DNA from: an uncultured Candidatus Saccharibacteria bacterium
Lineage (GTDB): Bacteria; Patescibacteriota; Minisyncoccia; UBA6257; 2-01-FULL-56-20
NCBI GenBank assembly: GCA_964361595.1
Contig: CAYIAX010000004.1
Span: 615-64,614 of the forward strand
Direction of reading: 5' to 3'
DNA: 64,000 nt
The position numbers were made by a program, and so were the translations under genes. The notes below the pieces were generated by a model, which had not been told where the DNA came from, did no database searches, and was given only the letters and a program-made list of their open reading frames with translations. This document shows, in pieces, positions 33,174 to 58,820 of the stretch; the stretch's first letter is position 1, and every line of letters begins with the position of its first letter.

Positions 33174-33258
33174 CTAGCTTTTAGCTTTTACCTGCCGGCA
33201 GGCAGGGCTTTGAGCTTATAGTCACTAAAACCTAACAGCTAAAACCTCAAACCTAATT

Positions 33259-33642
33259 ATGCGATTACTCGGTATCAACATTCCCGACAATAAAGCGATC
33301 GAAGTTTCGCTTACTTATATTTATGGAATCGGCCGCGCGCAGAGCCGGCGCGCTTTGGCCGCAGCAAAGGTAGGTTTTGAAAAACGGACAAAAGATTTGA
33401 ATGCTGAAGAGGTCAATAAATTGAAAACGTGGATAGAAAAAAATTGCCACATCGAAGGCGATTTGCGCCAACAGATCCGCCGCAACATCCAGCGGCTGAA
33501 GGAGCTCCAAACCTATCGCGGCAGCCGCCATGCGCGCCGCCTGCCGGTCCGTGGCCAGCGCACACGCACCAATTCCCGCACTGTTCGGGGCAATGTCCGC
33601 AAGACCGCAGGCAGCGGCAAGCGCAAGGTGGAGTTGAAGTAA
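33259..33642 (+). CDS. rpsM: 30S ribosomal protein S13
   Basis: MRLLGINIPDNKAIEVSLTYIYGIGRA... Confidence 0.95.
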   Translation: MRLLGINIPDNKAIEVSLTYIYGIGRAQSRRALAAAKVGFEKRTKDLNAEEVNKLKTWIEKNCHIEGDLRQQIRRNIQRLKELQTYRGSRHARRLPVRGQRTRTNSRTVRGNVRKTAGSGKRKVELK

Positions 33643-33767
33643 TCCCTCACCCTTTAACGATTTCCAACATGACTAAATTCAGTTTAAAAATTTCGTTCTC
33701 TAATCAAGGCAACATGAAAGAAATTGCAGTTTTTAAGGTCGCGAAGCAGATCGCTAAAGGGTGAGGG
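33643..33767 (+). repeat. TIR-flanked ~125-bp intergenic element, ribosomal-protein type, copy 1; contains 16-codon leader uORF 33714..33764 and ends ...agggTGAgggATG at the rpsK start
   Basis: TIRs tccctcaccctttaacgat / atcgctaaagggtgaggga. uORF MKEIAVFKVAKQIAKG with its stop TGA 3 nt before the rpsK ATG. Confidence 0.85.
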
Positions 33768-34220
33768 ATGGGCAAGAAAAAAATCGCACAACAAACCGCC
33801 GAAGAGGCGCTGAAGGAAAAAAACGAGCAGGACATTGCGGTGGCCAAGGCTTCGGTGGTCAAGAAAGCCAAAAGCGTTGATTCCGGCCGCGTTTATGTTA
33901 ATGCTTCATATAATAATACGGTGATTACCGTGACTGATCTGCAGGGCAATGTAATAACCTGGGCTTCGGCGGGATCAATCGGTTTCTCGGGACCCAAAAA
34001 GGCTACCCCATTCGCGGCTTCTAAGATCGTGGCCGTGATCGCGGAGAAACTCAAGAATTTGGGAGTGATGAATTTGGAGATCCGGGCTAGGGGCATCGGC
34101 GGCGGCAGGGATTCGTCTATCCGTTCCTTTGCCAACCAGGGTTTCAATATCACCTCCTTGAAAGATGTAACCCCGGTACCGCATAATGGTCCTCGGCCGC
34201 GTAAAGTCAGGCGCGTATAA
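33768..34220 (+). CDS. rpsK: 30S ribosomal protein S11
   Basis: VYVNASYNNTVITVTDLQGNVITWASAGSIGFSGPKKATPFAA... Confidence 0.95.
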   Translation: MGKKKIAQQTAEEALKEKNEQDIAVAKASVVKKAKSVDSGRVYVNASYNNTVITVTDLQGNVITWASAGSIGFSGPKKATPFAASKIVAVIAEKLKNLGVMNLEIRARGIGGGRDSSIRSFANQGFNITSLKDVTPVPHNGPRPRKVRRV

Positions 34221-34345
34221 TCCCTCACCCTTTAGCGATTTCTAACATGACTCAATTCAGTTTAAAAATTTTGATCACTATAAAAGGCAACATGAAAGAA
34301 ATTGCAGTTTTTAAGGTCGCGAAGCAGATCGCTAAAGGGTGAGGG
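34221..34345 (+). repeat. TIR element, ribosomal-protein type, copy 2 (uORF 34292..34342)
   Basis: Near-identical to copy 1, with the same TIRs and uORF MKEIAVFKVAKQIAKG. Confidence 0.85.
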
Positions 34346-34960
34346 ATGAGATATCCTAAAGAAAAAAAAGAACGCTCGTTGGGCGAGCGGCTACAGCTCA
34401 AAGGGGAGCGCTGCCGGTCACCCAAATGCGCCATGGTGCGGAAGCCGTATCGGCCCGGCATGCATGGACACAAGCGGCAGCGAAAGATGCTGTCTGATTT
34501 CGGCCGCCAGATCAAAGAAAAGCAGAAATTCAAGTGGAGCTATGGGATTGACGAGCGGAACCTGCGCCATATCTTCGAACGCGCCGAACGGAAATCAGGT
34601 TCAGTCGCTTCGCAATTTTTAAAACTTTTGGAATTGCGTTTGGATAACGTAATCTTTCGTTTAGGTTTTGCCGCGTCGCGGTCGATGGCGCGCCAGCTCG
34701 TGAACCACGGGCATGTTATGGTTAACGGACGGCGGGTCAAATCTCCCGGTTTCGAGCTTAAGCTTGGAGATATAATCTCGGTTCGTCCGTCTTCGGTTAC
34801 AAAGTCGGTTTTCAAGAATTTAAAAGAGGAACTTTCGAAGTATACGCCCCCGGCATGGCTTAGCATTGATGCCGACAAGTTTGAAGGCAAAATTGTTTCC
34901 GCTCCCGATGAAAATATGCCTTTTGAAGTAAATTTATTGGTCGAATCATTTAGCAAATAA
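34346..34960 (+). CDS. rpsD: 30S ribosomal protein S4
   Basis: Zn-ribbon N-terminus (CRSPKCAMVRKPYRPGMHG) and the S4 domain (LELRLDNVIFRLGFAASRSMARQLVNHGHVMVNGRRV). Confidence 0.95.
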   Translation: MRYPKEKKERSLGERLQLKGERCRSPKCAMVRKPYRPGMHGHKRQRKMLSDFGRQIKEKQKFKWSYGIDERNLRHIFERAERKSGSVASQFLKLLELRLDNVIFRLGFAASRSMARQLVNHGHVMVNGRRVKSPGFELKLGDIISVRPSSVTKSVFKNLKEELSKYTPPAWLSIDADKFEGKIVSAPDENMPFEVNLLVESFSK

Positions 34961-35728: not shown

Positions 35729-35857
35729 AAAATCCCTCACCCTTTAGCGATTTCCAACATGACTAAAACCAGTTTAAAAATTTTGATAACTATAAAAGGC
35801 AACATGAAAAATCATGGAGTATTTAAGGTCGCGAAGCAGATCGCTAAAGGGTGAGGG
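35729..35857 (+). repeat. TIR element, ribosomal-protein type, copy 3 (uORF 35804..35854, MKNHGVFKVAKQIAKG)
   Basis: Same TIRs; diverged interior. Confidence 0.85.
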
Positions 35858-36211
35858 ATGCGGCATTTAAAGAAAGGAAAAAAGTTTCACAGGTTGAAGG
35901 GAGAACGGCGTTCTTTTTTGCGCAACTTGGCGAATGATTTGCTTCGTAGCGGCAAAATCGAAACTACGGAAACCCGCGCCAAAGCCATCCGGCCTTTAGT
36001 TGAGCGCATGGTCACCATCGCCAAGCGGCAGGATTTGGCTGCGCGCCGCCTGCTCCTTGCTCGTTTGCACAATGAGCGGATTGTCCATAAGCTTTACGAT
36101 GAAATCGCTCCGCGTTATCAAGGCCGCCCGGGCGGATATCTGCGGATCACGAAGTTGGGCCGCAGCAAGAAGCGCGACGGCAGCCGGCTGGCCACCATAG
36201 AATTTGTTTAA
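35858..36211 (+). CDS. rplQ: 50S ribosomal protein L17
   Basis: MRHLKKGKKFHRLKGERRSFLRNLANDLL... Confidence 0.95.
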   Translation: MRHLKKGKKFHRLKGERRSFLRNLANDLLRSGKIETTETRAKAIRPLVERMVTIAKRQDLAARRLLLARLHNERIVHKLYDEIAPRYQGRPGGYLRITKLGRSKKRDGSRLATIEFV

Positions 36212-36336
36212 TCCCTCACCCTTTAGCGATTTCTAACATGACTCAATTCAGTTTAAAAATTTCATTCTCAAAGCAAGACAACATGAAAAATCATCGAGTT
36301 TTTAAGGTCGCGAAGCAGATCGCTAAAGGGTGAGGG
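36212..36336 (+). repeat. TIR element, ribosomal-protein type, copy 4 (uORF 36283..36333, MKNHRVFKVAKQIAKG)
   Basis: Same TIRs, ends at the rplM ATG. Confidence 0.85.
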
Positions 36337-36684
36337 ATGGATTACCACTTGGATGCTAAAAATAAGCACTTGGGGCGCTTGGCGTCGGAAATCGCCATGA
36401 TTCTCCAGGGCAAGCGGAATGCAAGCTACGACCCTGCTCGTTTGAGCGGTGATCGCGTGTTCGTAAAAAATTATCGCGGCGTGGTTGTGACCGGCCGCAA
36501 GGCGGAGCAAAAAACCTATTATCGCCACACCGGCTACATGGGACATTTGAAGGAAGCCAAATACAAAGAAGTATTTGCGAAGGACCCCAAGCGCGTCCTG
36601 CGCGAAGCAGTGCGCCGGATGCTGCCGAAAAATTTTTTAAACCAGCGCCGTCTAAACCAACTTATTTTCATCGATGGCGAATAA
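36337..36684 (+). CDS. rplM: 50S ribosomal protein L13
   Basis: LGRLASEIAMILQGKRNASYDP...VFVKNY. Confidence 0.95.
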   Translation: MDYHLDAKNKHLGRLASEIAMILQGKRNASYDPARLSGDRVFVKNYRGVVVTGRKAEQKTYYRHTGYMGHLKEAKYKEVFAKDPKRVLREAVRRMLPKNFLNQRRLNQLIFIDGE

Positions 36685-41748: not shown

Positions 41749-44568
41749 TTACCACAGCTCAATCATTAAGAGCGTCCCGGGCCGAAACTTTTGGTAAAGG
41801 GTTTCTGTTATAAAGGGCATAAAAGGGTGAAGAAGCTTTAAGGAGGTGAGTAAGCAGGTTTCGAGCGTGGCATACGCTCGCCGGGCGTCATTCAAGTTCT
41901 CGCCCTGGAGACGCGATTTTGCGGTTTCCACATGCTTATCCGCGAGCGCGTGCCAGATGTAGTGATAAAGCAGTTCAGCTGACCGGTGGTATTCGAATTT
42001 TTCGAGATGCGCCGTGACTTTTTTCTTTATGCCCGCCAGTTCAGCCGCAGTTTTCTTGTCCCAAGCCGTAGGAGCGGCAAGCGCGCCGTCTTTGGGCTTC
42101 CGCATATCGAGAAATCGCGAGATATTCCAGATTTTGGTCGCAAAATTGCGGTAAGCGCGGATTTTGTCTTCCGAGATCACGATATCGTTGCCGGGAGTAT
42201 TCCCGACCACAAGCGCCATCCGCAAAGCATCTGTGCCGTAAGTTTCCGCCACGCCCAGGGGATCGATTACGTTGCCCTTGGATTTGGACATTTTCTGCCT
42301 GTCCTTGTCGCGGACCAAGCCATGGAGGTAGACGGTTTTAAACGGAACTTTACCGGTGCGGTAAATTCCCAGCATCACCATGCGCGTCACCCAGAAGAAA
42401 AGAATGTCATAAGCGGTTTCCATGATATCGGTCGGGTAAAATTCCTCAAAATCGGATTTTGATTTAAGGAGGGTAGCGAACGGCCATTGGCCGGAGGAAA
42501 ACCAGGTGTCGAAAACGTCGGGGTCCTGTTCGTAGATGTGGTTGCCGCATTTTTCGCACGGTTCAAGGATATCAAATTGAATTGCCTGGGCGTTTTTTAT
42601 GCTTTCTCTCGTAAGCGCCCGCTCGGCAGTCAGGCCCCTTATCTGTTTCATGAGCATTCTGATGGTGCCGCCGTGGCTGACAACGATGACGTTTTTATGT
42701 TTATGGATTTTTTGATGTTTTTGGAAGGCCGCCCAGGCGCGTTTTTCCACTTCTTTGTAGCTTTCACCTCCGTAATCGTTGACCTCGTAGTCATATAAAC
42801 GTTTTCCGTATTTTTCTATGGCTTCGTTGCGCGCCACCCCTTCGGCGTCTCCCATGGAACGTTCGTGCAGTTCTTCTTCTATAATTATTTCTTTATCCCC
42901 CAGTGTTTTTGAAATAATTTCCGCAGTTTCTCTGGCTCTTTTCTGATTTGAACTGATAATAAGGTCTATCGGCGTATTCTTGAGCGCCTCGGCGGTTTTT
43001 TCGGCCTGAGCTTTTCCCGCGTCGTTTAGCGGATCGTCTCCGAGTCCTTGCAGTATGCTGTTTTTATTGGCGTCTGTTTCCCCGTGCCGTACCAGAAACC
43101 AGCTCGATTTTATTTCCGGATTTATTTTTACGTCGCCGCAGCCGAGGCAGAACCAGGCGGGGATTCGTATGCCCCAGACGATTTGGCGCGAAACGTTCCA
43201 GTCGCGGATATTCTTTAACCAATGGAGATACACTTTCTCCATCCTTTTGGGAATAAATTTAATTTTTCCGGATGTTACGGCCTCAATCCCCAAATCCCGC
43301 AGCGATTTTTCGGAAGCAGTTTTTTTCTGCGTTTGTCCGCGCTCGCCCCGAGTTGCATCGAGGGGTGAAGTCCGCGTAAGTCCGCGGGATGTCGGCGTAG
43401 CCGACATCCGGACGAACCACTGCATGCGGGGTAAGGGTTCAAGCGTCGAACCGCACTTGTAGCAAGTCGCAATTTGGTGGACGTAAGCCGGGTCAACTTT
43501 CTCTAAAATCCCTTTTTCCTGCATGGCGGCGGCAACTTTTTCCCTCGCCTCCGCCACCTTGAGGCCGTGAAAAGGCCCGGTTTCGCCCGTAAGCCGTCCG
43601 TTTTCGTTTATTATTATTTTCGGACCAGGTATTTCGTCCTTATGCCTCTGCCAGATCTCAAAGTCGGTCGCATCGTGCGCAGGCGTAACCTTAACCACGC
43701 CCGTGCCGAAGGCGGGATCAACGGCCTCGTCCGCAATGACTTTGAATTTAAGCGGGCCCAAAATGCCTTCCGCCTCGATTTCCTTGCCGATGTATTTCTT
43801 GTAGCGTTTGTCCCCAGGATTAACCGCGAGCGCTGTATCGCCGAACTTGGTCTCGGGCCGCACGGTTGCCAAGGTAAGCGGCCCGTACCTGATGTAATAA
43901 AGCGGATCGGTGCGTTCGACGTACTTTATCTCAAGATCGGAAAGTGCGGTCTTGTGCTTGGGGCACCAATTGACGACGCGGAAATCACGGTAGGCGAGAC
44001 CGTCTTTATAGAGTTGGGCAAAAGTTTCGTAAACTATTTTTACGATCTCGGGATCAAGCGTGAATTTTTCGCGTGACCAGTCGCAGGAGGCGCCCAGTTT
44101 GCGCAACTGGCCCTCCATGATTTTTTTATTCTCCTGCGTGAAGTCCCAAATCGCTTTGTAAACTTCTTCCCGGTCCATTCGAAATCGGCTTTTTCCTTCT
44201 TTCTCTAATTTCTTATCGAAAACCACCTGTGTTTCAAATCCCGCATGGTCGGCGCCGGGCAGCCACAGCGCCTTCTGGCCGCGCATGCGCGCAAAGCGGA
44301 TCATGATGTCCTGGAGCGTTACGAACACCGCGTGCCCCACATGCAAGGAGCCGTTCGCGTTCGGCGGCGGCATGATAATCGAAAACGCGGACTTACGCTG
44401 ACTTGACGCTGACTGTCGCTGACTTTTTCCGCGTTTGTCTGCGTGCCGTCCGCGTGAGTCTGCGCTGATCGGCGGTAGCCGATCAGGGTTGAAATATCCG
44501 GATTCCTCCCACTGCTTATAAATCGAATCTTCAATCTCTTTGTGGTCGTAGCGGGGGTCGAGTTCCAT
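41749..44568 (-). CDS. valS: valyl-tRNA synthetase with an inserted histidine-phosphatase (PGAM-like) domain and two GC-type element inserts
   Basis: PPPNANGSLHVGHA (HIGH), KMSKSKGN, editing domain, and the anticodon-binding helices. RHGETDANK...VVSHGGTIRML lies between the two Cys pairs of the zinc knuckle. Confidence 0.9.
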   Translation of the reverse strand: MELDPRYDHKEIEDSIYKQWEESGYFNPDRLPPISADSRGRHADKRGKSQRQSASSQRKSAFSIIMPPPNANGSLHVGHAVFVTLQDIMIRFARMRGQKALWLPGADHAGFETQVVFDKKLEKEGKSRFRMDREEVYKAIWDFTQENKKIMEGQLRKLGASCDWSREKFTLDPEIVKIVYETFAQLYKDGLAYRDFRVVNWCPKHKTALSDLEIKYVERTDPLYYIRYGPLTLATVRPETKFGDTALAVNPGDKRYKKYIGKEIEAEGILGPLKFKVIADEAVDPAFGTGVVKVTPAHDATDFEIWQRHKDEIPGPKIIINENGRLTGETGPFHGLKVAEAREKVAAAMQEKGILEKVDPAYVHQIATCYKCGSTLEPLPRMQWFVRMSATPTSRGLTRTSPLDATRGERGQTQKKTASEKSLRDLGIEAVTSGKIKFIPKRMEKVYLHWLKNIRDWNVSRQIVWGIRIPAWFCLGCGDVKINPEIKSSWFLVRHGETDANKNSILQGLGDDPLNDAGKAQAEKTAEALKNTPIDLIISSNQKRARETAEIISKTLGDKEIIIEEELHERSMGDAEGVARNEAIEKYGKRLYDYEVNDYGGESYKEVEKRAWAAFQKHQKIHKHKNVIVVSHGGTIRMLMKQIRGLTAERALTRESIKNAQAIQFDILEPCEKCGNHIYEQDPDVFDTWFSSGQWPFATLLKSKSDFEEFYPTDIMETAYDILFFWVTRMVMLGIYRTGKVPFKTVYLHGLVRDKDRQKMSKSKGNVIDPLGVAETYGTDALRMALVVGNTPGNDIVISEDKIRAYRNFATKIWNISRFLDMRKPKDGALAAPTAWDKKTAAELAGIKKKVTAHLEKFEYHRSAELLYHYIWHALADKHVETAKSRLQGENLNDARRAYATLETCLLTSLKLLHPFMPFITETLYQKFRPGTLLMIELW
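42560..43105 (-). other. PGAM/histidine-phosphatase domain-coding insertion inside valS
   Basis: Encodes ...CLGCGDVKINPEIKSSWFLVRHGETDANKNSILQGLGDDPLNDAG...NVIVVSHGGTIRMLMKQIRGL...FDILEPCEKCG, flanked by ValS zinc-knuckle cysteines. Confidence 0.75.
43327..43410. repeat. GC-type element (TCCGCG units plus palindrome gatgtcggcgtagccgacatc) in-frame in valS
   Basis: gaagtccgcgtaagtccgcgggatgtcggcgtagccgacatccgg. Confidence 0.6.
44384..44490. repeat. GC-type palindromic element, full copy, in-frame in the valS N-terminus
   Basis: acgcggacttacgctgacttgacgctgactgtcgctgact...tccgcgtttgtctgcgtgccgtccgcgtgagtctgcgctgatcggcggtagccgatcag; encodes ADSRGRHADKRGKSQRQSASSQRKSAF. Confidence 0.7.
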
Positions 44569-44955: not shown

Positions 44956-46062
44956 TCAAATGTTCAGATCTCCCCGGGCTTCAAGTCTTAATTTCTTCTT
45001 GCGCAGGCGAGCTTGCCCGTCCGAAGCTCTTGAGCGAAGGAGGGTCATGTACCCCGCGGCGGCAATCATCACGGCGTTGTCGGTGTTGTATTGCATATCT
45101 GCTACAAAAAAGCGAATCCCCATTTTCCGTGTCGCTTTTTCCAGTTCGCTTCGCAAGAGTTTATTGGCCGCTACGCCGCCGGAGAGCATGATGGATTTGG
45201 CTTTGAAGATTTCTGTTGCGCGTATCGTTTTATAAACAAGCACATTGATCACCGCTTTTTCAAATGATGCGGCAACATCGGCTTTGTCGGCTTTTGGGTT
45301 GTCGCGGAGATAATACAGGACGGAAGTCTTGAGTCCCGAAAAACTGAAATCATAATTCTTTTGATCGCGCATGGGACGCGGGAAGGGAATGGCATTGGGA
45401 TCGCCCTTCGCGGCAAGGCGCTGGATTTCCGGCCCGCCGGGGTAGGGGAGGCGAAGCAAGCGCGCCACCTTATCGAAGGCTTCACCGGCGGCATCGTCGC
45501 GCGTTTCGCCGAGCTTTTGCCAGGATTTAAGATTTTTCATCAAAAGCAAAATCGTGTGCCCGCCGCTCACCAGCAGTGAAACTGCTGGGAATATCGAAGC
45601 ACGAAACCCGAAATCCGAAACGCGCTTCGAGCTTTCTTTTTTCTTCGGCAGAAGAAAAGAGAAGAGATGTCCTTCGAGATGATTTACTCCCACGAGCGGG
45701 GGCTTATGGCTTATGGCGAATGGCATATCGTAAAGCTCTTTTGCAAAACTGATGCCAGTCCACAGCGCCGGTTCCAAACCAGGGCCCACTGTGACGGAGA
45801 CCAAATCAACTTTTTTCCATAAGCTATATGCTCTTTGTCCTTTGCCAAAAATTTGCCGAAAAAGGATCGGCAAATTTTTTACGTGCTCGCGCTTGGCCAG
45901 ATTGGGAACCACGCCGCCGAAGGGGCGGTGGATGTTTATCTGCGAGGAAACCAGGTTTGTGAGCACCTTAAATTTCGGCAGCCCATTTGGGGAGCCTGCG
46001 CTAGCCTCAACCATGGCAAGCGCTGTCTCATCGCAACTTGTTTCAATGCCAAGTATAAACAT
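44956..46062 (-). CDS. tsaD: tRNA N6-adenosine threonylcarbamoyltransferase (Kae1/TsaD) with an AT-type element insert
   Basis: ILGIETSCDETALAMV, VGVNHLEGHL, SGGHT. Insert KKKESSKRVSDFGFRAS at 45590-45640. Confidence 0.9.
   Translation of the reverse strand: MFILGIETSCDETALAMVEASAGSPNGLPKFKVLTNLVSSQINIHRPFGGVVPNLAKREHVKNLPILFRQIFGKGQRAYSLWKKVDLVSVTVGPGLEPALWTGISFAKELYDMPFAISHKPPLVGVNHLEGHLFSFLLPKKKESSKRVSDFGFRASIFPAVSLLVSGGHTILLLMKNLKSWQKLGETRDDAAGEAFDKVARLLRLPYPGGPEIQRLAAKGDPNAIPFPRPMRDQKNYDFSFSGLKTSVLYYLRDNPKADKADVAASFEKAVINVLVYKTIRATEIFKAKSIMLSGGVAANKLLRSELEKATRKMGIRFFVADMQYNTDNAVMIAAAGYMTLLRSRASDGQARLRKKKLRLEARGDLNI
45590..45640. repeat. AT-type element in tsaD (encodes SDFGFRAS, the same peptide as the lepA copy)
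   Basis: cgaagcacgaaacccgaaatccgaaacgcgcttcgagc. Confidence 0.6.
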
Positions 46063-47957: not shown

Positions 47958-48896
47958 TTACTTCAACGACTCAGCTCCGGCGGTGATTTCGATGATTTCT
48001 TTCGTGATCGCGGCCTGGCGAGCTTTGTTATAAACGAGCGTGAGCTCCGACCTAAGCTCATTCGCGTTATCGGATGCGTTTTTCATGGCCACGCGGCGGG
48101 CGGCGTGCTCGGACGCGTTCGCCTCGAGCACCAAATGGTAAATTTCCATGAGTGTGAGGTGGGCGGCGAGTTCGTCGAGGATCTCCTGCGGCGAAGGTTC
48201 GATCAGATAATCTTCGTTGCCTGTTTGCGCCTCCGGTTGGTCAAGTTGCTTGAAATTGGCGAAGCGTCCGGTTTTAGGAACAAGTTCGCGGAGAGTATTT
48301 AAGAGCGCTTCGGCGCTCGCGGGCAAGAGCTCGCGAAAAACCATGTCTTGCCGGAGCGCGCTTTCAAAGCGCATTGAGAAGACGAGGACGCGGTCCCAGT
48401 CGCCCCGGAGAAATCCTTCCGTCAAAAATTTGGCCAGAGGTTCGATTTCCGCGATTGTGGTGTAATCGCCGAAGCGGGTAAATGCGCGTTTAAAGTTCGG
48501 CGTCCGGCGTTCGAGATAGGCGGCGGCTTTTTGGCCGACGGCGATGTACGCGTAAGCGGGATCGGCAAAATCTATTTTCTCCGCCCGGATGAATTTTTCC
48601 ACTGCGCGGATTACAGCGCTGTTGAACGAACCGGCCAGCCCCTTGTCTGAAGTGACGACCACAATCGCCGTGGTTTTAACGCCGCGTTTTTCGAGAAGCT
48701 TAGGCAGGTGCGCGGTTTCGAGACGCGTAAGCCGCGCGAGAAAATCCAGCGCCGAAAAAGCGTAAGGCCGCGAAGCCAAAGCGATCTCCTGGCTCTTTCG
48801 CATCTTGGTTGCCGCCACGAGCTCCATGGCTCGCGTGATCTGGTTTATGTTTGTCACCCCTTTGAGGCGGCGTTTAAGGTTTTGCAAAGACTCCAT
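47958..48896 (-). CDS. atpG: F0F1 ATP synthase subunit gamma
   Basis: MESLQNLKRRLKGVTNINQITRAMELVAATKMRK..., ending ...ITKEIIEITAGAESL. Confidence 0.9.
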   Translation of the reverse strand: MESLQNLKRRLKGVTNINQITRAMELVAATKMRKSQEIALASRPYAFSALDFLARLTRLETAHLPKLLEKRGVKTTAIVVVTSDKGLAGSFNSAVIRAVEKFIRAEKIDFADPAYAYIAVGQKAAAYLERRTPNFKRAFTRFGDYTTIAEIEPLAKFLTEGFLRGDWDRVLVFSMRFESALRQDMVFRELLPASAEALLNTLRELVPKTGRFANFKQLDQPEAQTGNEDYLIEPSPQEILDELAAHLTLMEIYHLVLEANASEHAARRVAMKNASDNANELRSELTLVYNKARQAAITKEIIEITAGAESLK

Positions 48897-49020
48897 CCCT
48901 CACCCTTAGAGAATTTGCGCAGAGCGCAAACTCTCGATATGTTTTGAGCTAAAGACCTTTATCTCCAAATAAGTTCTTGTGAAAATGTGTTTCATGAAAT
49001 GATTCTCTAAGGGTGAGGGA
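48897..49020 (-). repeat. TIR element, atp type, copy 1, upstream of atpG (29-codon uORF 48906..48995; ...ctcTAAgggTGAgggATG)
   Basis: TIRs tccctcacccttagagaat / attctctaagggtgaggga. uORF MKHIFTRTYLEIKVFSSKHIESLRSAQIL. Confidence 0.85.
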
Positions 49021-50550
49021 TTAAGAGTTGGCGATCAGGAATTTCTCGATCGCGGCTTTGAGCTTCGCTTCAGTCTCCTCGATCAAGTTTCCGGTTTCGC
49101 GAATCGGCTTCAGGATGTCTTCGTCGTGCAGTTTGGCGATGTACTCAAGGAAAAGCCCTTCCATTTTTTTCGCTTGCTCGATTTCAAAACGGTCGAAATG
49201 GCCGTTCAAGACCGCGTAGAAAATCGCCACCTGCTTTTCGCAAGCCAAGGGCGCCTGGTCGTCCTGCTTTAAAATTTCGGTGATGATTTGTCCCTGGCGG
49301 ATGCGTTTTTTCGTGGCTGCGTCCACGTCCGAGGCGAATTGTACGAAAGCCTGGAGTTCGCGGAACTGCGCCAAGGCGTAGCGCAAACCGCCGGCGACTT
49401 TCTTCATCGCTTTGGTTTGAGCTGCGGAGCCCACGCGCGAGACCGAGAGTCCAACGTTTACGGCCGGCCGGATGCCTTGGTAGAAAAGATCGCTTTCCAA
49501 ATAAATCTGGCCGTCGGTAATCGAAATTATGTTCGTCGGAATGTAAGCGGTAATGTCGCCGAGTTGCGTTTCGACAAGGGGGAGTGCCGTCAAGGATCCC
49601 CCGCCTTTCTCTTTTGATAGTTTGGCGGCGCGCTCTAGCAAGCGGGAGTGGAGGTAAAAAATATCGCCGGGGTAAGCTTCGCGGCCGGGCGGGCGGCGGA
49701 GCAAGAGCGAGATCTGCCGGTAAGCCCAGGCATGTTTTGAAAGGTCGTCGTAAACAACAAGCGCGTCTTCGCCGCGGTCGCGGAAATATTCGCCTACGGC
49801 GCAGCCGGCAAAGGGTGCCAGATACCACAAGGCGGCGGGCGACGAAGCCGAAGCGGAAACTACAATAGTATATTTCAAGGCGTCATATTGCTTGAGGGTT
49901 TCCACAATGCGGGCAACTTTCGCTTCTTTCTGTCCTACGGCTACATATATACAGATAGGCGTTTTGCGGCCGGTATCAGAGCCCTGGTTAATTATCGTAT
50001 CGAGCGCCACGGCGGTTTTGCCGGTCTGGCGATCGCCAATGATAAGTTCGCGCTGGCCGCGGCCGATCGGGATCATTGAATCTATGCTCTTTAATCCGGT
50101 ATGGAGCGGCGTGTTCACACCTTCGCGTTCCAAAACGGATGGCGCGCGATTTTCCAAAGGGTAGCGTGTTTGTTCTTGGTTTTTAAAAATTGGGCCCTTG
50201 CCGTCCAGGGGATTGCCCAGGGGATCGATCACGCGGCCAACCATTTCTTTGCCGACCTGGAGCGAAAGCACTTGGCCGGTGCCCTTAACGGTATCTCCGC
50301 TTTTTATTTCCAAATAATCATCGAGCACCAAAGCGCCGATTGTTTCTTCTTCGAGGTTTAAAGCCACGGCGCGGCGCGGACCCGCATGAGTTTCGATCGT
50401 GAGGAGCTCCTGGCTCGCCGCTTGCTTCAAACCGGTCAATTTTACAATGCCGTCGCCGACTTCAATTATGCGGCCCACGGCTTCCCAGTCGGTCTTATCC
50501 TTATAATCGGCAATTTCACGCTTAAGTTTTTCGATGATTTCGTAAGACAT
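49021..50550 (-). CDS. atpA: F0F1 ATP synthase subunit alpha
   Basis: P-loop [18 protein letters not shown], and ...[23 protein letters not shown]... Confidence 0.95.
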
Positions 50551-50639: not shown

Positions 50640-51038
50640 CTAGAATTTAGAATTGGTTGCGGAGAATAATTTTTGCAGTTTTCGTTTAAGCGACATGTCG
50701 AGTTCGCGTTCGTCATTTACGGTGATCCTTACTCCGGCCACGAGTTCAGGAAGAATTTGTTCTTCGACTTTATCTTTGGGTTTAAGAAGCGTATGAAAAA
50801 GTTTGCGCGCGGGCTGGGGTAAGGGGCGGGCGGAAGCAACCTCAATTTTATTTATGCCCTTGCGGGCGTAAAACATTTTTTCGGTCGCCGCGGCGATTTT
50901 AGGCAAAAGGTATGCGTCGCCGTTTTGCCTCGCTAAAGATATGGCGCGGCGGATGTACTCTTCCTGCTTCACCTGGCTCTCTGTGCTTGCGAGCACCGCG
51001 CTTAAAGCTTCGGCATAAACCCTGGGAGAAAACTTCAT
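50640..51038 (-). CDS. atpH: F0F1 ATP synthase subunit delta (OSCP-like, short)
   Basis: Position between atpF and atpA; helical N-domain (YAEALSAVL...). Confidence 0.7.
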   Translation of the reverse strand: MKFSPRVYAEALSAVLASTESQVKQEEYIRRAISLARQNGDAYLLPKIAAATEKMFYARKGINKIEVASARPLPQPARKLFHTLLKPKDKVEEQILPELVAGVRITVNDERELDMSLKRKLQKLFSATNSKF

Positions 51039-51162
51039 CCCTCACCCTTAGAGAATTTGCGCAGAGCGCAAGCCCTCAATCTGTTTTGTCCTGGGGACCT
51101 TTAGCTCCGAATAAGTTCTTATTAAAATGTTTTTCATAAAGTGATTCTCTAAGGGTGAGGGA
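51039..51162 (-). repeat. TIR element, atp type, copy 2, upstream of atpH (uORF 51048..51137)
   Basis: Near-identical to copy 3. uORF MKNILIRTYSELKVPRTKQIEGLRSAQIL. Confidence 0.85.
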
Positions 51163-51663
51163 TTATTTTCCGGCAATTTCCTCTACTGCTTTCTTGATCA
51201 AGGCCTCATCCACGGCCGTGGGAGCAAGTTCGACGGTGCGAATCAGGGCTGCTTTGACCAGGGCCGCCGCTTCTTGTTTCATCGCCCGGCGGGCGGTTTC
51301 CGCCTTACCGGCAATAATCTGATCCGTCTGGGCCAGCATCTCGGTTTCTTTGGTTTTGGCGGCTGCGAGGAGTTCGCCCTCGAGCCGCTTGGCCTTGGCT
51401 TCGGTGGCTTTAATTACAAGCATGGCCTTTTCATCAGCTTCTTTCATTTTGGCTCGCTCGAGCTCCTGGATTTCGCCTAACCGGACTTCGGCCTCTTTGG
51501 CTTTGGTGAGGCCCGCCTCGATTTTCTCCCGCCGGTCCTTGAGGATTTTTAAAATCGGCTTGTAAGCGAAAACGCGCAAGACAACTAGAAGCAGCAAGAA
51601 GTTCACCGCTTGGCTTAAAAGCAATTTCCAGTCGAGGCCTAATTGGTTGATGAGTTCAGACAT
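51163..51663 (-). CDS. atpF: F0F1 ATP synthase subunit b
   Basis: N-terminal TM helix (LLLSQAVNFLLLLVVLRVFAY) plus a long charged helix. Confidence 0.8.
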   Translation of the reverse strand: MSELINQLGLDWKLLLSQAVNFLLLLVVLRVFAYKPILKILKDRREKIEAGLTKAKEAEVRLGEIQELERAKMKEADEKAMLVIKATEAKAKRLEGELLAAAKTKETEMLAQTDQIIAGKAETARRAMKQEAAALVKAALIRTVELAPTAVDEALIKKAVEEIAGK

Positions 51664-52087: not shown

Positions 52088-52825
52088 CTATTCATGTGCA
52101 ATGGCGGTGGCAACGAAGACGAGGGACAGCATTGCGAAGACGAAAGCTTGGATGAAACCCACGAAAGTTTCCAAGAAGAGAAACGGAAGCGGAATGAAGT
52201 AAGGAGTGAGGAAAGCGATGATCGTGAGCAAGATTTCGCCGGCAAAGATGTTGCCGAAGAGCCGGAACGAAAACGAGATCAGTTTAGCAACTTCGGAGAT
52301 TAATTCAAGTATGCCGATGAAAAAATCGATCGGTCCCCTGAAATTAAAAAATTTACCCGCGTGCTTTACAAAACCGATGACGGCAATACCCAGAATATTC
52401 ACGGTGACGACGGAAATGACGGCCAAGGCGAGCGTGAAATTGAGATCGCTGCCGGGCGAGCGCAAAAGCGGAACGCGCCCCTCCGCTGTTTCAAAAATGA
52501 CCGAGCCGATGCCGGGCAAAAGCCCAAACCAGTTCGCAGCGAGAATGAAAAGGAAAACGGTGCCCACAAAGGGCAGGTATTTTTCAGCTCGCTCACGGCT
52601 GCCAAGGATTCCTTCCATGAGCCCGAGCGCTCCCTCAATCGCAGTTTCAAAAGTATTTTGAATGTAGCCGGGGACGAGGACTAACCGCCGCCGGCCAATT
52701 GCGGCGAGCGCGGCTAGGATAACCATGACTAGAGTTGAAAGCAAAAGCGCGTTCGTGACGGGAAAGCCGCCGAGGCGGAAAAGTTCTTCGGCGCGGAGTG
52801 AAATATGTATGCCAGATGATTCCAT
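52088..52825 (-). CDS. atpB: F0F1 ATP synthase subunit a
   Basis: Polytopic; RLFGNIFAGE contains the essential Arg. Confidence 0.85.
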   Translation of the reverse strand: MESSGIHISLRAEELFRLGGFPVTNALLLSTLVMVILAALAAIGRRRLVLVPGYIQNTFETAIEGALGLMEGILGSRERAEKYLPFVGTVFLFILAANWFGLLPGIGSVIFETAEGRVPLLRSPGSDLNFTLALAVISVVTVNILGIAVIGFVKHAGKFFNFRGPIDFFIGILELISEVAKLISFSFRLFGNIFAGEILLTIIAFLTPYFIPLPFLFLETFVGFIQAFVFAMLSLVFVATAIAHE

Positions 52826-52949
52826 CCCTCACCCTTAGAGAATTTGCGCAGAGCGCAAGCCCTCAATCTGTTTTGTCCTGGGGACCTTTAGCTCCGAATA
52901 AGTTCTTATTAAAATGTTTTTCATAAAGTGATTCTCTAAGGGTGAGGGA
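52826..52949 (-). repeat. TIR element, atp type, copy 3, upstream of atpB (uORF 52835..52924)
   Basis: Same TIRs and uORF as copy 2. Confidence 0.85.
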
Positions 52950-53321
52950 TTCCCGCCGGACGCCGAAAGCGGCGGCAGGAGAGTAATTATAGGAAAAAGC
53001 GGCTGGAAAAGCAAAACCGATTACAATCTAAAAAAGATAAGGCCGGCGCGGGAGAAAAGCTTGCGTCGGCCTCGGATGTTCGGGTCGTATAGACCCGAGT
53101 GGTCCCCAAAAGGAGGGGCAGCAGCGCAGCAAAAGCTAGCAACCGGGGTTATTTAGAAAATACTGGAACTGGCTTAATTATAGCGCTTGCATTTCGTTTA
53201 TGGAAGGGGAATGTGGATAACCCCAAAGGGCTTTACCGGGATTCAAGCATAAGGAAGCCCCGACGTGCATGGTTGCACCGGGGCTTTTAGCGGAAAATGT
53301 TTGGTGGGAAATACTTCTTAT

Positions 53322-53432: not shown

Positions 53433-55247
53433 CTAAACTTTCCTATGTTTAGGCGTAACCCAAAAGCCCAGCCTGAACTTGCCGCCGAGCATCAGCCGCG
53501 TTTGCGCATCAAGACCCGGAAAAGCGCCGAAGACAATCAGAGTTATGGGGATCAAGAGCCACTGCAACGCATACAGGAAATAATGCCACCGGCGGAACCA
53601 GGCCGGCTTGGGGGGCAAAAGCAGTATGGCGAGTATAGCTGAACTGGCGATACCCAACATCGCCAAGCTCATAATGAAGCTTGTAATCTGCGGCAGGCTG
53701 TAAGACAGAAGCGAGTAGCTGAAAGCCTCGCCGCCCAGCCAGAGCGGCAGCCAGCCCAAAGCAAAAATCATGAGGGCGTTCGTCGCCCAGGAATGAAAAC
53801 CTTCGATCGTAATCAATGACCAGTACCATTTTTTCCGCAAGGGTATTTTTTTATCGTATAAAAACCCTTGCCCGCGATCCGAATCTACCAATCCATCCGA
53901 AGTATCCGAATGGCCTTGCTGAATAGGCATATCCGAATAATTCGGGTTGTTGATTCGGTAAGTATTCGGAGCATTCGAATGTAATTCGGATTTTTCGGAT
54001 TGCCTACCACAGAGCATATAAGGAATGTTTTCCGCGCCCCAGCCCCAGCGCCGGTGCTGGCGGTAGGTATTTTTCATCGTACTCCAAAAAGTCGGGCCGA
54101 CGTTTGCATCCATGGATACGGGATAGGATAAGGGCTCCACGCGGAACTCGCCGTTGTAGCGCAGAAATCCCTGCCAGAACACACGCGAGTCTTCGGAAAC
54201 GACATCCTTGTGCCAGAATCCCATATCAACAAGCGCCTGGAAAGGGATTGATTGGGACGAAAAAGATGTGAGCCGTTCCGGCCTCGCCTGCTGCATCATT
54301 TGCCAGAAGGTGGAGGAGAACGAAACTACGCGCGCGAAAGCGGGAGCCTGGTAAATATTGTTAGTGAAGAGCGGCACCGGTTGGTAGATTGCGCGCAGCC
54401 TGTCTTCGGCATTTAAAAATGCATAGGTGAGCCGTCCGAAGTAATCGGGGAAAATTTGCGTGTCAATGTCAAAAACGGAAACCAGAATATTTTCGTAGGA
54501 GAGCGCTGATTCACGCTGACTAGACGCTGACTTGCGCAGAACCTCGCTGGCGGTATCGTTGGTCTGCGTATAGTCTGCGTAAGTCCGCGTATTGACCAAG
54601 GGGTCAATAATTAGCCGCTTGGCTTCTTTGGCGGCCCAGGCTTCGTTCGAACCTTTGCCGGGAATTTCTCCGGGCAAGCCGGCCGGGTGTTTCGTAGTTA
54701 GAAACCTGCGGAAGCGCGCGCCGAATTCCGCTTTGATTTTTTTCGCCGTTTCCGCGGCTTCCTCGCCGCCGCTTGCTTCCGTCGCCAAAACCACGATGAA
54801 TTTGTCCGTGGGATAATTGGCTTTAACCAAACTTCCAAAACTTTCTCGCACGAGCGGATGGGGTTCTTTGTGTATAGGGAAGATGATTAAGTGAATGATT
54901 TCTTTCCAGGATATGCGATTCGAATCTACTAATTCATCCGAATGCTCCGATTCAACAATTCGGGGCATTCGGATGTCATTCGCCTGCCTGCCGGTCAGGC
55001 AGGGATTTTTAGGATCGCTTTGGAGCTTTTTTAATTCCGCGAGCCAATCCACCTTAAGATTGCGCTTCATCTGCCGGAAAGTCGCGCTCAAATGGAGCGA
55101 GAGGTAAACGGTTTTGAGGAGCCAGTAGGTGTCAAAAAGAATGATGAAGATGGCGATAAAAGCGGGAGTGGCCCAGGAGAGGAAAACCATGAGTCCGATC
55201 GTGAGCCAAGCCAGCGCTCCGGGAATAATTTCAAAAAAGCGGTACAT
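53433..55247 (-). CDS. processive family-2 glycosyltransferase (cellulose/chitin-synthase-like) with in-frame GC-type and AT-type element inserts
   Basis: N- and C-terminal TM bundles; DXD (VSVFDIDTQ); QxxRW motif (YRQHRRWGWG). Inserts KSASSQRESALS, NAPNTYRINNPNYSD... and IRMPRIVESEHSDELVDSNRISW. Confidence 0.6.
   Translation of the reverse strand: MYRFFEIIPGALAWLTIGLMVFLSWATPAFIAIFIILFDTYWLLKTVYLSLHLSATFRQMKRNLKVDWLAELKKLQSDPKNPCLTGRQANDIRMPRIVESEHSDELVDSNRISWKEIIHLIIFPIHKEPHPLVRESFGSLVKANYPTDKFIVVLATEASGGEEAAETAKKIKAEFGARFRRFLTTKHPAGLPGEIPGKGSNEAWAAKEAKRLIIDPLVNTRTYADYTQTNDTASEVLRKSASSQRESALSYENILVSVFDIDTQIFPDYFGRLTYAFLNAEDRLRAIYQPVPLFTNNIYQAPAFARVVSFSSTFWQMMQQARPERLTSFSSQSIPFQALVDMGFWHKDVVSEDSRVFWQGFLRYNGEFRVEPLSYPVSMDANVGPTFWSTMKNTYRQHRRWGWGAENIPYMLCGRQSEKSELHSNAPNTYRINNPNYSDMPIQQGHSDTSDGLVDSDRGQGFLYDKKIPLRKKWYWSLITIEGFHSWATNALMIFALGWLPLWLGGEAFSYSLLSYSLPQITSFIMSLAMLGIASSAILAILLLPPKPAWFRRWHYFLYALQWLLIPITLIVFGAFPGLDAQTRLMLGGKFRLGFWVTPKHRKV
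53878..54003. repeat. AT-type element (CCGAAT/ATTCGG units; core gaatctaccaatccatccgaa) in-frame in the GT2 gene
   Basis: Shares a 20-nt core with the copy at 54913-54985 (gaatctactaattcatccgaa). Confidence 0.6.
54503..54592. repeat. GC-type palindromic element in the GT2 gene
   Basis: gcgctgattcacgctgactagacgctgacttgcgcagaacc...ggtctgcgtatagtctgcgtaagtccgcgtattgac. Confidence 0.7.
54913..54985. repeat. AT-type element, second copy in the GT2 gene, plus hairpin cctgcctgccggtcaggcagg
   Basis: cgattcgaatctactaattcatccgaatgctccgattcaacaattcggggcattcggatgtcattcg. Confidence 0.55.
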
Positions 55248-55290
55248 ATTTAGAACCTAGAATTTAAAACCTAGAAGCTAGAAAGTATGA
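55248..55290. repeat. TAGAAC-type satellite (tagaacctagaatttaaaacctagaagctagaaag)
   Basis: The same unit recurs at 57073-57209, 57549-57677 and 58206-58326, partly as inverted arrays. Confidence 0.6.
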
Positions 55291-55382
55291 TTTTCTTAAA
55301 TTTGCCGTGATTGCTTGAAAATTAAGCGTATTCACTATACAGTATAACGGCAGAGCACGGAAATACAGGTAAAAAATCTTTT

Positions 55383-55457
55383 GGCCTCGTCGTCTAGCCT
55401 GGTCCAGGACGCCGCCCTTTCACGGCGGAGACACGGGTTCGAATCCCGTCGGGGCTA
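55383..55457 (+). tRNA. tRNA-Glu (anticodon UUC)
   Basis: Anticodon arm CCGCC-CTTTCAC-GGCGG; T-arm ACGGG-TTCGAAT-CCCGT; D-arm GTCTAGCCTGGTCCAGGAC. Close to E. coli tRNA-Glu. Confidence 0.85.
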
Positions 55458-55505
55458 CAATTATCCACTTTTGTACTAGCGTTTGAGATTGTATAATAAG
55501 TTACG

Positions 55506-56207: not shown

Positions 56208-56220
56208 TATACTTATTGTA

Positions 56221-57072: not shown

Positions 57073-57209
57073 AACCTAGAAGCTAGAATTCAGAATCTAG
57101 AATCGCTTTTAAAACCTAGAAGTTAGAATTTAGAACCCAGAAGAAACATGATCGAAACTTTTTAATCATAAATTCTAAATTCTAGGTTCTAGATTCTAGA
57201 TTCTGCACA
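57073..57209. repeat. TAGAAC satellite arranged as an imperfect large palindrome
   Basis: ttagaacctagaagctagaattcagaatctagaatc ... cataaattctaaattctaggttctagattctagattctg. Confidence 0.6.
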
Positions 57210-57548: not shown

Positions 57549-57677
57549 GTCAATTTCCAGCTTCCAGCTTCCAGCTTCCAGCTTCTAAGTTTGCTTGTGG
57601 ATAAACTATTTACCGGCTTGTTATATACTATTATTGAGTATTCTAGGTTCTAAATTCTGAATTCTAGATTCTAAACA
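57549..57677. repeat. simple repeats: (ccagctt)x4 followed by an inverted TAGAAC-type array
   Basis: ccagcttccagcttccagcttccagcttc ... ttctaggttctaaattctgaattctagattctaaac. Confidence 0.55.
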
Positions 57678-58205: not shown

Positions 58206-58326
58206 GAACCTAGAATTTAGAACCTGGAATCTGGAAAATACGAATTATGCTATTACTAAAAAAGTCGATCGGTTTTTAAAGTTTTAAATTCTAGATTCTG
58301 AATTCTAGGTTCTAAATTCTAATCTC
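58206..58326. repeat. TAGAAC satellite, forward and inverted arrays
   Basis: gaacctagaatttagaacctggaatctgg ... aaattctagattctgaattctaggttctaaattctaatc. Confidence 0.55.
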
Positions 58327-58773: not shown

Positions 58774-58820
58774 TAAGTAGAAAGTGGTAGGTAGTAGGTG
58801 GAATATGGGACGATAAAAAC

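Follow-up and report, generated by a model that had tools for sequence, protein, structure and literature searches.

Phased CGCNGA repeat palindromes lying in frame in housekeeping genes of a CPR genome: candidate cargo-less copies of a GxxExxY nuclease element

The valS gene of this contig carries, within its reading frame, a run of short repeated units followed by their reverse complement, which raises the question of what such a structure is and how it can persist in an essential gene. In a first-pass annotation of the window (the whole stretch of DNA that was analysed, 64 kb in length) it had been assigned to a family of palindromic mini-elements, resembling Rickettsia palindromic elements (RPEs) and inserted in frame into at least six housekeeping genes of a CPR-like genome. 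The genome is indeed a CPR one (Liptonbacteria-like), the repeat is present at all the sites then listed (Table 1), and identical gatB inserts in three independent assemblies show that the copies are not assembly artefacts.

The basic module is an arm of four units of 10 or 11 nt, each with an invariant CGCNGA core (the sequence logo of the unit reads A-CGC-N-GA). CGC[AGT]GA cores in the window cluster at spacings of 10, 11 and 10 nt; with one core per 10/11-nt unit, the cores are thus phased with the DNA helical repeat and, since a pair of units measures 21 nt and an arm 42 nt (14 codons), the reading frame is not shifted by an arm. Ten arms with perfect cores were found, distributed among gatB, thrS, the GT39-like gene (PMT_2 by Pfam), pcm, valS and the GT2-like gene; when the 20 fixed core positions were scored, these ten reached 20/20, none fell at 18-19 and two at 17, about 0.3 arms being expected at 16 or more under a Markov background. 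The strict four-unit pattern CGCDGAN4CGCDGAN5CGCDGAN4CGCDGA matches nine times in the window versus never in 100 dinucleotide shuffles. A three-unit chain at 2211-2259 proved to be ordinary methylase sequence, and was discarded as an element.

Table 1. Repeat elements of the window and their parts (positions in the window; L, CGCNGA units; R, TCNGCG units; z, from RNA folding)
Feature	Position	Strand	Composition and remarks
valS element a (focal)	44386-44486	-	flank hairpin, L arm, R arm; full palindrome 44386-44464; RNA fold -49.3 kcal/mol, z -6.1; encodes ..PPISADSRGRHADKRGKSQRQSASSQRKSAF
valS a flank hairpin	44465-44486	-	CTGATCGGC-tacc-GCCGATCAG; first in gene orientation
valS a L arm	44428-44464	-	4 CGCNGA units
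valS a R arm	44386-44422	-	4 units
valS element b	43326-43409	-	flank hairpin and L-type arm of 2+2 units
valS b flank hairpin	43387-43409	-	GGATGTCGGC-tac-GCCGACATCC
valS b single arm	43326-43386	-	interrupted at 43342-43370, where a small CCCC..GGGG hairpin is nested
gatB element a (site A)	7992-8090	+	flank hairpin, L arm, R arm; full palindrome 8012-8090; z -4.4
gatB a flank hairpin	7992-8010	+	TTGGCGCA-ttt-TGCGCCAA
gatB a L arm	8012-8048	+	
gatB a R arm	8054-8090	+	
gatB element b (site B)	8265-8318	+	flank hairpin and single L arm
gatB b flank hairpin	8265-8281	+	GTTTCGC-ttc-GCGAAAC
gatB b solo L arm	8282-8318	+	
thrS L-type arm	12585-12625	-	encodes DADKRGSKRGSTQI; unit spacing 10, 12, 10; one core degenerate
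thrS R-type arm	12349-12392	-	encodes LNPRSSAFDQRKSAF
GT39/PMT_2-like gene	15363-15442	-	full palindrome, 4+4 units; no flank hairpin; z -4.8
pcm element	22349-22425	+	flank hairpin, L arm, remnant of one R unit
pcm flank hairpin	22349-22371	+	GCTTGCTTA-tcttg-TAAGCAAGC
pcm L arm	22372-22408	+	
GT2-like gene element	54504-54609	-	flank hairpin, two arms; palindrome 54504-54589; z -4.1
GT2 flank hairpin	54590-54609	-	TATTGACC-cctt-GGTCAATA
GT2 arms	54563-54589, 54504-54540	-	3 intact units, 22-nt centre, 4 units

The orientation of the arms is always facing, with CGCNGA units (L) first and TCNGCG units (R) second, and a head-to-head pair forms an imperfect palindrome of about 80 nt. The description of each copy as a run of units followed by its reverse complement, able to form a hairpin, holds for the four full palindromes of the window (gatB a, GT39-like, valS a and GT2), which fold as hairpins with z from -4.1 to -6.1; the period, however, is 10/11 nt (21 per pair of units) and not 7-11 nt, and gatB b, pcm and valS b are single arms. 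In thrS both an L and an R arm are present, but conserved ThrRS sequence separates them, the R arm lying 196 nt downstream of the L arm in the direction of the gene. A scan of a genome collection gave at least 120 loci, counts with no permuted-core background behind them; among the matches listed, 190 of 255 arms consist of four units, L-then-R pairs are adjacent in 34 cases and near in 31, R-then-L pairs are adjacent in none, and single arms are common. No near-identical pair was found among the window copies, so that they provide no demonstration of recent transposition.

As had been claimed, the host reading frame runs without a stop through all window copies, and the cores are perfect across different codon phases when the host frames are compared. 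On alignment to solved orthologues each copy coincides with a gap: GatB site A corresponds to a 20-aa gap versus the T. maritima protein and site B to a 14-aa gap, the pcm insert to a 19-aa gap in the PCMT orthologue, and the thrS L and R arms to gaps of 10 and 14 aa, respectively, in ThrRS; at ValRS element b the alignment breaks at query residues 390-428, where the solved chain has only residues 365-371. The AF2 model of ValRS (pLDDT 87.3) falls below 50 in two segments only, residues 36-57 and 396-417, which are elements a and b, and the ValRS inserts are accordingly predicted to be disordered loops; more generally, the elements are predicted to be translated as disordered segments of 14-30 residues.

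These segments are missing from many orthologues. About half of 44 orthologues have nothing at the site of ValRS element a (site 1), and the insert-bearing sequences, which fall into two junction classes, are scattered in a neighbour-joining tree that is itself star-like; GatB site B has no insert in 41 of 121 sequences, the remainder having either one arm alone or the complete L+R pair. Many close orthologues lack the insert, and others carry unrelated repeat families at the same site. The inserts are not lineage-specific, as might have been supposed: among the matches listed, this arm is shared by many CPR lineages with several other phyla, and helices of 16S and 23S rRNA contain it as well, and similar peptides stand at the same sites in distant CPR orthologues (gatB of a Saccharibacteria MAG, thrS of another MAG; the thrS L-arm site is occupied in locus L118), an outcome that the first-pass annotation had named as refuting. 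Since the nearest orthologues are often without the insert, what it suggests is repeated or hot-spot insertion, and not a protein segment inherited from an ancestor; alternatively, the shared sites could reflect ancient inheritance followed by many losses.

The breadth of this distribution is to be read with some care. In viral contigs only two match the real pattern, fewer than the permuted-core control (nine stretches in four contigs), and carriage by phages was discarded on this ground; the control matches indicate that unrelated 21-nt-periodic repeats exist and, because they outnumbered the real pattern, some of the high-GC matches are probably unrelated to the element family. At the elements themselves Rfam had no family to offer: in the window and eight loci the search matched only tRNA, rRNA and, below threshold, generic hairpins. 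Genes for the four-helix-bundle protein of 23S intervening sequences are not associated with the elements (2 of 120 loci among the matches listed); no HUH or other transposase gene emerged from Pfam scans of the window ORFs or from clustering of the locus genes, and the only recurrent gene families near the elements are the host genes that contain them.

How the elements were inserted may be recorded at their borders. In CPR copies a perfect small hairpin adjoins the first core, made up of an outer arm that belongs to the host and an inner arm that is the exact reverse complement of this host sequence. Such hairpins, nearly confined to CPR, are found in six of the nine window copies and missing from three, and among the matches listed 14-17% of 156 arms have one directly against the first core, versus 1-2% in controls. 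The dependence on the host sequence is visible in the proteins: at GatB site A the residues gained change together with the host residue X of the TLXH motif (FAPS, LAPS or LAAS after TL[A/V/L]H) and, similarly, RE[T/I] comes after AN[V/I]SL, in both cases as reverse complementarity would predict. Rfam alignments of the rRNAs show the inserts sitting at the tips of native helices, with an exact copy made of each G.U-paired strand. As for target-site duplications, nothing exceeded chance: the best flanking direct repeats (2-5 nt) equalled those of random controls. An origin of the flank hairpins as P-nucleotides was rejected because every one of them has a non-palindromic loop of 3-5 nt, and direct duplication of a palindromic target was rejected because the inner arm matches its own flank as an exact complement, and does not have the sequence of the G.U-paired partner strand. 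To judge from the sequences, the flank hairpin would be a signature of snap-back repair.

A candidate for a longer relative of the elements is provided by the GxxExxY ORF, of about 125 aa (PF13366/TIGR04256), a minimal PD-(D/E)XK nuclease with a Cas4/RecB-like fold and with invariant catalytic residues D, E and K; a search of solved-structure sequences with this protein gave no match, and the function of PF13366 has been given as 'Unknown' (PMC3424549). In all six contexts considered (L098, L067, L123, L138, L146 and L151) the ORF is bracketed by L and R units, its start codon lying often within the last L unit. In lepA (L098) and leuS (L067) it lies in frame inside the host gene, as a continuous ORF with low-complexity linkers, and nuclease ORFs occupy conserved gatB sites in relatives (P0140, P0154, P0176, P0181 and P0196). 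The arm family co-varies with the subfamily of the ORF, a different subfamily being accompanied by different arms.

The reading preferred here, to which a probability of roughly 0.6 is given, is that a small selfish element encoding the GxxExxY nuclease is represented in the window by copies without cargo; they are classed as its derivatives solely because they share its arm architecture. The cores would be recognition sites of the nuclease or of a partner protein, either of which might mobilise or maintain the copies in trans. Integration would proceed through a DNA break, in loop-coding DNA or at the apex of an rRNA helix; the broken 3' end would snap back and copy 6-15 nt of its own flank, generating the perfect flank hairpin; extension would then add the arm, and often a few native codons would be replaced. 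The sharing of sites across lineages would result from repeated, homing-like or hot-spot insertion, and only copies that are stop-free and in tolerant loops would persist; they could do so inside essential genes and rRNAs because they are read through in frame and not spliced out. Against a cassette origin, the window has no GxxExxY gene, and the flank hairpin is missing from non-CPR copies too.

The absence of that gene from a window rich in arms also favours the view that the elements are selfish palindromes of the RPE kind with some other mobiliser, the GxxExxY ORF being an unrelated invader that settles preferentially in palindrome centres. Nested insertions into arms do occur, small hairpins breaking those of valS element b and of locus L136, and ORF-less copies far outnumber ORF-bearing ones at the sampled loci among the matches listed, so the ORF might have entered pre-existing palindromes secondarily. 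That every examined ORF of the subfamily is arm-bracketed, often with its start codon in the last L unit, argues against it, and the pairing of another subfamily with another arm family fits co-inheritance at least equally; this account is judged unlikely. Constant cores with near-random spacers and N bases, as found between the paired arms of CPR copies, could alternatively reflect a host-level function, the arrays being beneficial sites for a DNA- or RNA-binding protein that are tolerated in genes like uptake sequences; chromosome organisation, DNA uptake and recombination control are examples of such roles. The match to the 10.5-bp helical repeat, the fixed number of four sites per arm and, among the matches listed, the presence of the motif in several phyla agree with this proposal, which is nevertheless improbable: orthologous sites in close relatives are empty or filled by unrelated repeats, a nuclease cassette is associated with the arrays, Pfam scans of the window ORFs offered no candidate binding protein, and rRNA helices and enzyme loops are implausible as sites chosen by a host.

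Two further accounts are to be considered. Local slippage and template switching during replication may, with no mobile element involved, produce quasi-palindromes where loops are unconstrained, and both the templating of the flank hairpins by adjoining host sequence and the species-specific peptides of 7-aa periodicity found at the same sites in orthologues are in keeping with such a process; yet the same core, 10/11/10 spacing and four-unit arm recur at nine places of the window and in distant phyla, and the conserved bracketing of the ORF is left unexplained, so that slippage is very hard to credit as the source. Scarcely more credible is selection of the inserts for a function, as peptide modules or as mRNA hairpins tuning translation or stability. 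Although the full copies fold well (z -4 to -6) and the encoded peptides are alike and hydrophilic, reading of the arms in two or more phases yields different peptides, predicted moreover to be disordered, and single arms are common; co-variation between paired arms is absent from the N bases and spacers of coding copies, which indicates that the hairpin is not maintained.

If the derivation from a GxxExxY cassette is correct, it would add to Rickettsia a second and much broader case of selfish DNA in essential protein genes, set in ultra-small CPR bacteria and extending into their rRNAs, and would give a first functional context to the widespread GxxExxY/PF13366 family, while the snap-back flank hairpins, if truly such, would be a sequence footprint of the integration route. 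It would also make sense of many peculiar low-complexity inserts in CPR proteins and of their variation in length, both of which confuse annotation, alignment and phylogeny. Topic, DNA-string and family-name searches of the literature retrieved no earlier description of the element; that it represents a mobile-element class so far undescribed, combining nuclease cargo, phased inverted arrays, snap-back integration, in-frame persistence and ORF-less remnants, is put forward tentatively, as a proposal open to considerable doubt.

Comparison with known systems gives partial likenesses. RPEs are outlined, in the account of Ogata et al. (2000) conveyed by PMC10969869, as Rickettsia-specific sequence families of about 150 bp (100-150 bp as a defining range) lying in frame in genes. 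The resemblance noted at first holds for behaviour, both being short palindromes in frame within unrelated housekeeping genes of a reduced genome, tolerated and translated as extra, fold-compatible peptide segments, but it does not extend to membership: the 42/84-nt size, the four phased 10/11-nt units per arm and the invariant hexamer set the present elements apart from RPE descriptions, as do their presence in several phyla and in rRNA helices, the candidate nuclease-coding parent and the snap-back flank hairpin. With MITEs they share terminal inverted repeats (the L and R arms) and a small size (80-100 nt); the GxxExxY ORFs, bracketed by the same arms in 6/6 contexts, are a candidate for the longer relative with shared ends, their autonomy and transposase activity being putative. 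Unlike MITEs, they show no target-site duplication. Like both MITEs and REPIN/RAYT systems, they are compact multi-copy elements with inverted ends that form hairpins, and a protein from a longer relative plausibly mobilises them in trans, but that protein is a minimal PD-(D/E)XK nuclease and neither a DDE nor an HUH transposase. REP/REPIN sequences are palindromes of 20-40 nt with a GTAG/CGTC head, accompanied by a RAYT (HUH) gene; the elements described here lack that head, and their ends are four-repeat arrays, unlike plain terminal inverted repeats.

PARCELs, too, are coding repeats that have dyad symmetry, and they are likewise spread horizontally in a punctate pattern; they are 25-residue domains in long tandem tracts of proteins of unassigned function, often membrane-targeted, unlike the short inserts of phased 10/11-nt units in housekeeping enzymes considered here. 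The usual homing endonucleases belong to the LAGLIDADG, HNH or GIY-YIG types. Their genes, and rRNA intervening sequences, are resembled by the nuclease ORF in conserved sites of lepA, leuS, gatB, valS and rRNA, and by the patchy occupation across distant lineages with ORF-less remnants, the ORF being seen at such sites in relatives and not in the window; unlike inteins and introns, with no Rfam intron match at the elements and no intein domain in scans of the host proteins, the inserts are simply read through.

The first-pass annotation had placed the repeat at 44384-44490 in valS and at a series of other sites in the window, and it is present at every one; its units, described as 7-11 nt long, are indeed repeated, but measure 10 or 11 nt and are built around the hexamer core CGC[A/G/T]GA. 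Four such cores compose an arm, with core-to-core spacings of 10, 11 and 10 nt (21 nt per unit pair), CGCNGA units forming the L arm and TCNGCG units the R arm. The strict four-unit pattern is matched 9 times in the window and never in 100 dinucleotide-preserving shuffles; scores over the 20 fixed core positions are bimodal, ten arms reaching 20/20 and two 17, with none at 18-19 and the remainder at background level. The palindromic hairpin attributed to each copy holds for the four full copies, in which the two arms stand head to head and the predicted folds are long bulged hairpins (z-scores -4.1 to -6.1); the remaining copies are three single arms and the split thrS pair. An assembly artefact as the source of the repeats is excluded by the identical gatB inserts of three independent assemblies; one strain variant of gatB has two residues changed, neither within the inserts.

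Coordinates of repeat copies and of other features in the window
Feature	Gene or location	Position	Strand
Full head-to-head palindrome	gatB	8012-8090	
Full head-to-head palindrome	GT39-like gene	15363-15442	
Full head-to-head palindrome	valS	44386-44464	
Full head-to-head palindrome	GT2-like gene	54504-54589	
Single arm	gatB	8282-8318	
Single arm	pcm	22372-22408	
Single arm, interrupted	valS	43326-43386	
L arm and R arm 196 nt apart, conserved ThrRS sequence in between	thrS		
In-frame TAG	thrS	12106-12108	-
Two ORFs yielded by the TAG	thrS	12816-12106 and 12087-10927	
Complete histidine-phosphatase domain (PF00300, phosphoglycerate-mutase-like)	valS (ValRS aa 488-660)	~42589-43107	-
Different in-frame palindromic element (HAEFRNSNIETRNKLNSDFGFRASDLSNSEF)	lepA	19429-19521	+
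~127-nt elements	Intergenic	33642-33769, 34220-34347, 35732-35859, 36211-36338	
~127-nt elements	Intergenic	48884-49032, 51037-51163, 52824-52950	
Heptamer arrays TAGAAYC, TTCCAGC, CTACCAC, TAGTAAG	Intergenic	55248-59396	
TIGR02436/PF05635 four-helix-bundle proteins (23S rRNA IVS protein, bAvd-like)	Among the heptamer arrays	57210-57548 and 58821-59192	
GT2-like protein	GT2-like gene	53433-55247	-
Heptamer tandem repeats CGAAACC x3 and GGCTTAT x4, with a palindromic stretch	tsaD coding region	45595-45735	-
Tsp45I-type restriction endonuclease gene adjoining an N6/N4 DNA methylase gene		1128-3085	
Shorter GC palindrome CCTGCCGGCAGGCAGG	Intergenic spacer	33190-33215	

As had been proposed, the insertions are in frame: every copy is genic and free of stops in the host frame, stops being frequent in the other frames, and each element falls in a gap on alignment with solved structures, of 20 and 14 aa in gatB, 10 and 14 aa in thrS and 19 aa in pcm; in valS, the alignment to the solved ValRS is interrupted from query residue 390 to 428, a stretch to which just residues 365-371 of the solved chain correspond. 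In the AlphaFold model of the window ValRS (mean pLDDT 87.3), the sole segments below 50, residues 36-57 and 396-417, are the two elements, both predicted to be coil. The genome is that of a Liptonbacteria-like organism (Parcubacteria), whose ValRS is no more than 65% identical to its nearest homologue. Of 44 ValRS orthologues, about half have nothing inserted at the N-terminal site, five besides the window's ValRS carry the same element type there, and several more carry unrelated palindromic peptides; the insert-bearing sequences are scattered over the neighbour-joining tree and fall into two junction classes, with or without a small perfect hairpin abutting the first core. Site B of GatB is empty in 41 of 121 sequences, the others bearing a solo arm or a full L+R palindrome at an identical junction, and site A is equally variable. 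The best-supported account of the surviving in-gene copies is that they form disordered loops of housekeeping enzymes.

Similar peptides had been claimed for all copies; DAD.RG and TQ.NAE types can be recognized, but the registers differ between copies and, owing to the 10/11 alternation, successive cores fall in different codon phases, so that protein-level selection cannot explain the constancy of the cores, which are kept constant at the nucleic-acid level. Cores are perfect throughout in CPR, window and non-CPR copies; within arm pairs, complementarity at the variable base N and in the spacers is near random in CPR and window copies (0-41%) and about 60% in non-CPR ones. Either the cores serve for recognition, or propagation is confined to copies in which they are intact; it is also conceivable that perfect cores reflect a host function. 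The 21-nt periodicity, found in intergenic and rRNA copies as well, is intrinsic and renders the arms frame-neutral, so that selection need remove only copies with stops or at intolerant positions.

The view of the insertions as lineage-specific did not survive, since the same four-unit pattern occurs in other CPR lineages and other phyla. A scan of a species-representative genome collection returned at least 120 stretches; among the matches listed, about one third are CPR (Saccharibacteria, Wolfe-, Jorgensen-, Vogel-, Moran- and Liptonbacteria), with many copies within long ORFs, and the non-CPR ones, among them Omnitrophota, Nostocales cyanobacteria, Bacteroidota, Chloroflexota, Planctomycetota, Gemmatimonadota and Betaproteobacteria, mostly overlap short ORFs only and are therefore probably intergenic. 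Bases flanking the core differ, being A-CGCNGA-H in CPR copies versus CGCNGA-K in non-CPR copies. The window's gatB site A is also occupied in a Saccharibacteria MAG and its thrS site in another MAG; rRNA genes are hit too, at 16S helix 6 (locus L023) and in a 23S helix (locus L109). In viral contigs, a permuted-core control gave 9 stretches in 4 contigs against 2 with the real pattern, and part of the collection matches, in high-GC genomes especially, are therefore probably unrelated 21-nt-periodic repeats. Over all loci listed, 190 of 255 arms have four units, and L-then-R pairs are adjacent in 34 cases and within 300 nt in 31; adjacent R-then-L pairs number zero. The Saccharibacteria 23S rRNA gene of L109 (193-5837) is 5.6 kb long and holds, besides the element, several weak matches of group I intron type, all below threshold; in L023 (7457-8000), the 16S gene has a second insert of 138 nt further downstream.

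The arms bracket a GxxExxY ORF in all six contexts examined: in frame within lepA of a Saccharibacteria locus (L098), one of the L...R pairs a few hundred nt apart, as a 120-aa PF13366 (PDDEXK_3) and TIGR04256 (GxxExxY) domain between PVRMVY and ILNLIDTPGH; in frame within leuS (L067); around a stand-alone gene of a Cyclobacteriaceae genome (L123); and around the closest stand-alone homologues (L138, L146 and L151, the last between nusG and rplK). In many cases the ORF starts within the last L unit (ATGAGCGCAGAT = MSAD). A second GxxExxY subfamily is flanked by another arm family (SNxxRI ... NPKF/DSxxF) and stands in frame at gatB site A or B of five Liptonbacteria-like orthologues, others carrying ORF-less palindromes of this arm family at the same sites. 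The correspondence between arm family and ORF subfamily is confirmed by the protein tails: 18 of 69 subfamily A tails are R-arm-like and none B-like, and 35 of 48 subfamily B tails are B-like and one A-like. In the literature, PF13366 is listed as a family of unknown function with multiple horizontal transfers (PMC3424549); a literature search retrieved no paper tying PF13366, or CPR, to in-frame palindromic repeats.

On the best-supported reading, the window elements derive from a small nuclease cassette with phased repeat arrays as its ends and have no ORF of their own; the nuclease would recognize the cores and mobilize or maintain copies in trans, and sites common to several lineages would stem from repeated, homing-like insertion, not from ancient inheritance. 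On the main rival view, the palindromes came first and the GxxExxY ORF invaded them secondarily. Present activity in this genome is unproven, because the 64-kb window contains neither a GxxExxY gene nor near-identical pairs among its elements. The suggested resemblance to Rickettsia palindromic elements extends to behaviour, namely in-frame insertion, but not to membership, given the differences in size, internal architecture, taxonomic range and candidate nuclease-coding parent; unlike MITEs, the elements show no target-site duplication above chance, they do not have the defining properties of REP/RAYT, and in contrast to homing-endonuclease inteins and introns they lack any splicing apparatus. 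They are best grouped with selfish in-frame insertion elements, of a previously unknown variant, and the full cassette could, with substantial probability, represent a new class of mobile element.

In the window, a perfect 6-10-bp flank hairpin with a 3-5-nt loop accompanies 6 of 9 copies, always on the gene-upstream side and ending exactly one base before the first core; stems of at least 7-8 bp occur at 14-17% of 156 arms versus 1-2% of random positions. The hairpin is nearly confined to CPR, being present at 25/67 CPR arms versus 1/81 non-CPR arms. Its outer arm consists of host sequence, of which the inner arm is the exact reverse complement. At GatB site A, FAPS, LAPS and LAAS come after the host TLAH, TLVH and TLLH, just as expected when the codons of each lineage are reverse-complemented; site B shows RET after ANVSL and REI after ANISL. 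In two MAGs, the host GRK codons of infB form the basis of the right-hand hairpin. According to Rfam alignments, the rRNA inserts sit at a native helix apex, where the host strands pair with G.U wobbles and each is copied exactly on its own side, so that the two small hairpins differ by transitions alone. Hairpin opening with P-nucleotides is ruled out by the non-palindromic loops, and duplication of a palindromic target by the fact that each copy agrees with its own flank, not with the partner strand. The simplest reading is that the 3' end at a DNA break would fold back on itself, self-prime for 6-15 nt and then acquire the arm by further extension; to judge from empty orthologues, several codons of the native loop appear to have been replaced during integration. 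In eukaryotes, polymerase-theta-type end joining is known to leave templated snap-back insertions as its signature; for the putative step considered here, no bacterial enzyme is implicated by the present data.

Several other features were observed. The thrS TAG (..LDLYVF*ALVASRLQLWPPKG..) could denote a pseudogene, a sequencing error or read-through. The histidine-phosphatase domain inserted in ValRS is modelled with confidence, and most of the nearest ValRS homologues of Liptonbacteria type have it too. The lepA element occupies the exact site of the arm-flanked GxxExxY cassette in the L098 lepA, and a degenerate PRGSA-type piece lies at ~aa 205-222. The ~127-nt elements, of two subfamilies, fill spacers of the ribosomal-protein/rpoA and ATP-synthase operons; they have 20-nt terminal inverted repeats (ATCCCTCACCC...GGGTGAGGGAT), perfect in most copies, and one end, with an SD-like GGGTGAGGG, lies directly against the neighbouring gene's start codon. 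The heptamer arrays, often inverted pairs, surround small genes, and further low-complexity segments of the GT2-like protein (NDIRMPRIVESEHSDELVDSNRI; TYRINNPNYSDMPIQQGHSDTSDGLVDSD) resemble yet another repeat family that is translated in frame. The element in the valS of P0030 (L135, 3001-5817) has a short, perfect GC palindrome (CCTGCCTGCCGGCAGGCAGG) nested in it; together with the related intergenic one of the window, this palindrome may represent another mini-element family.
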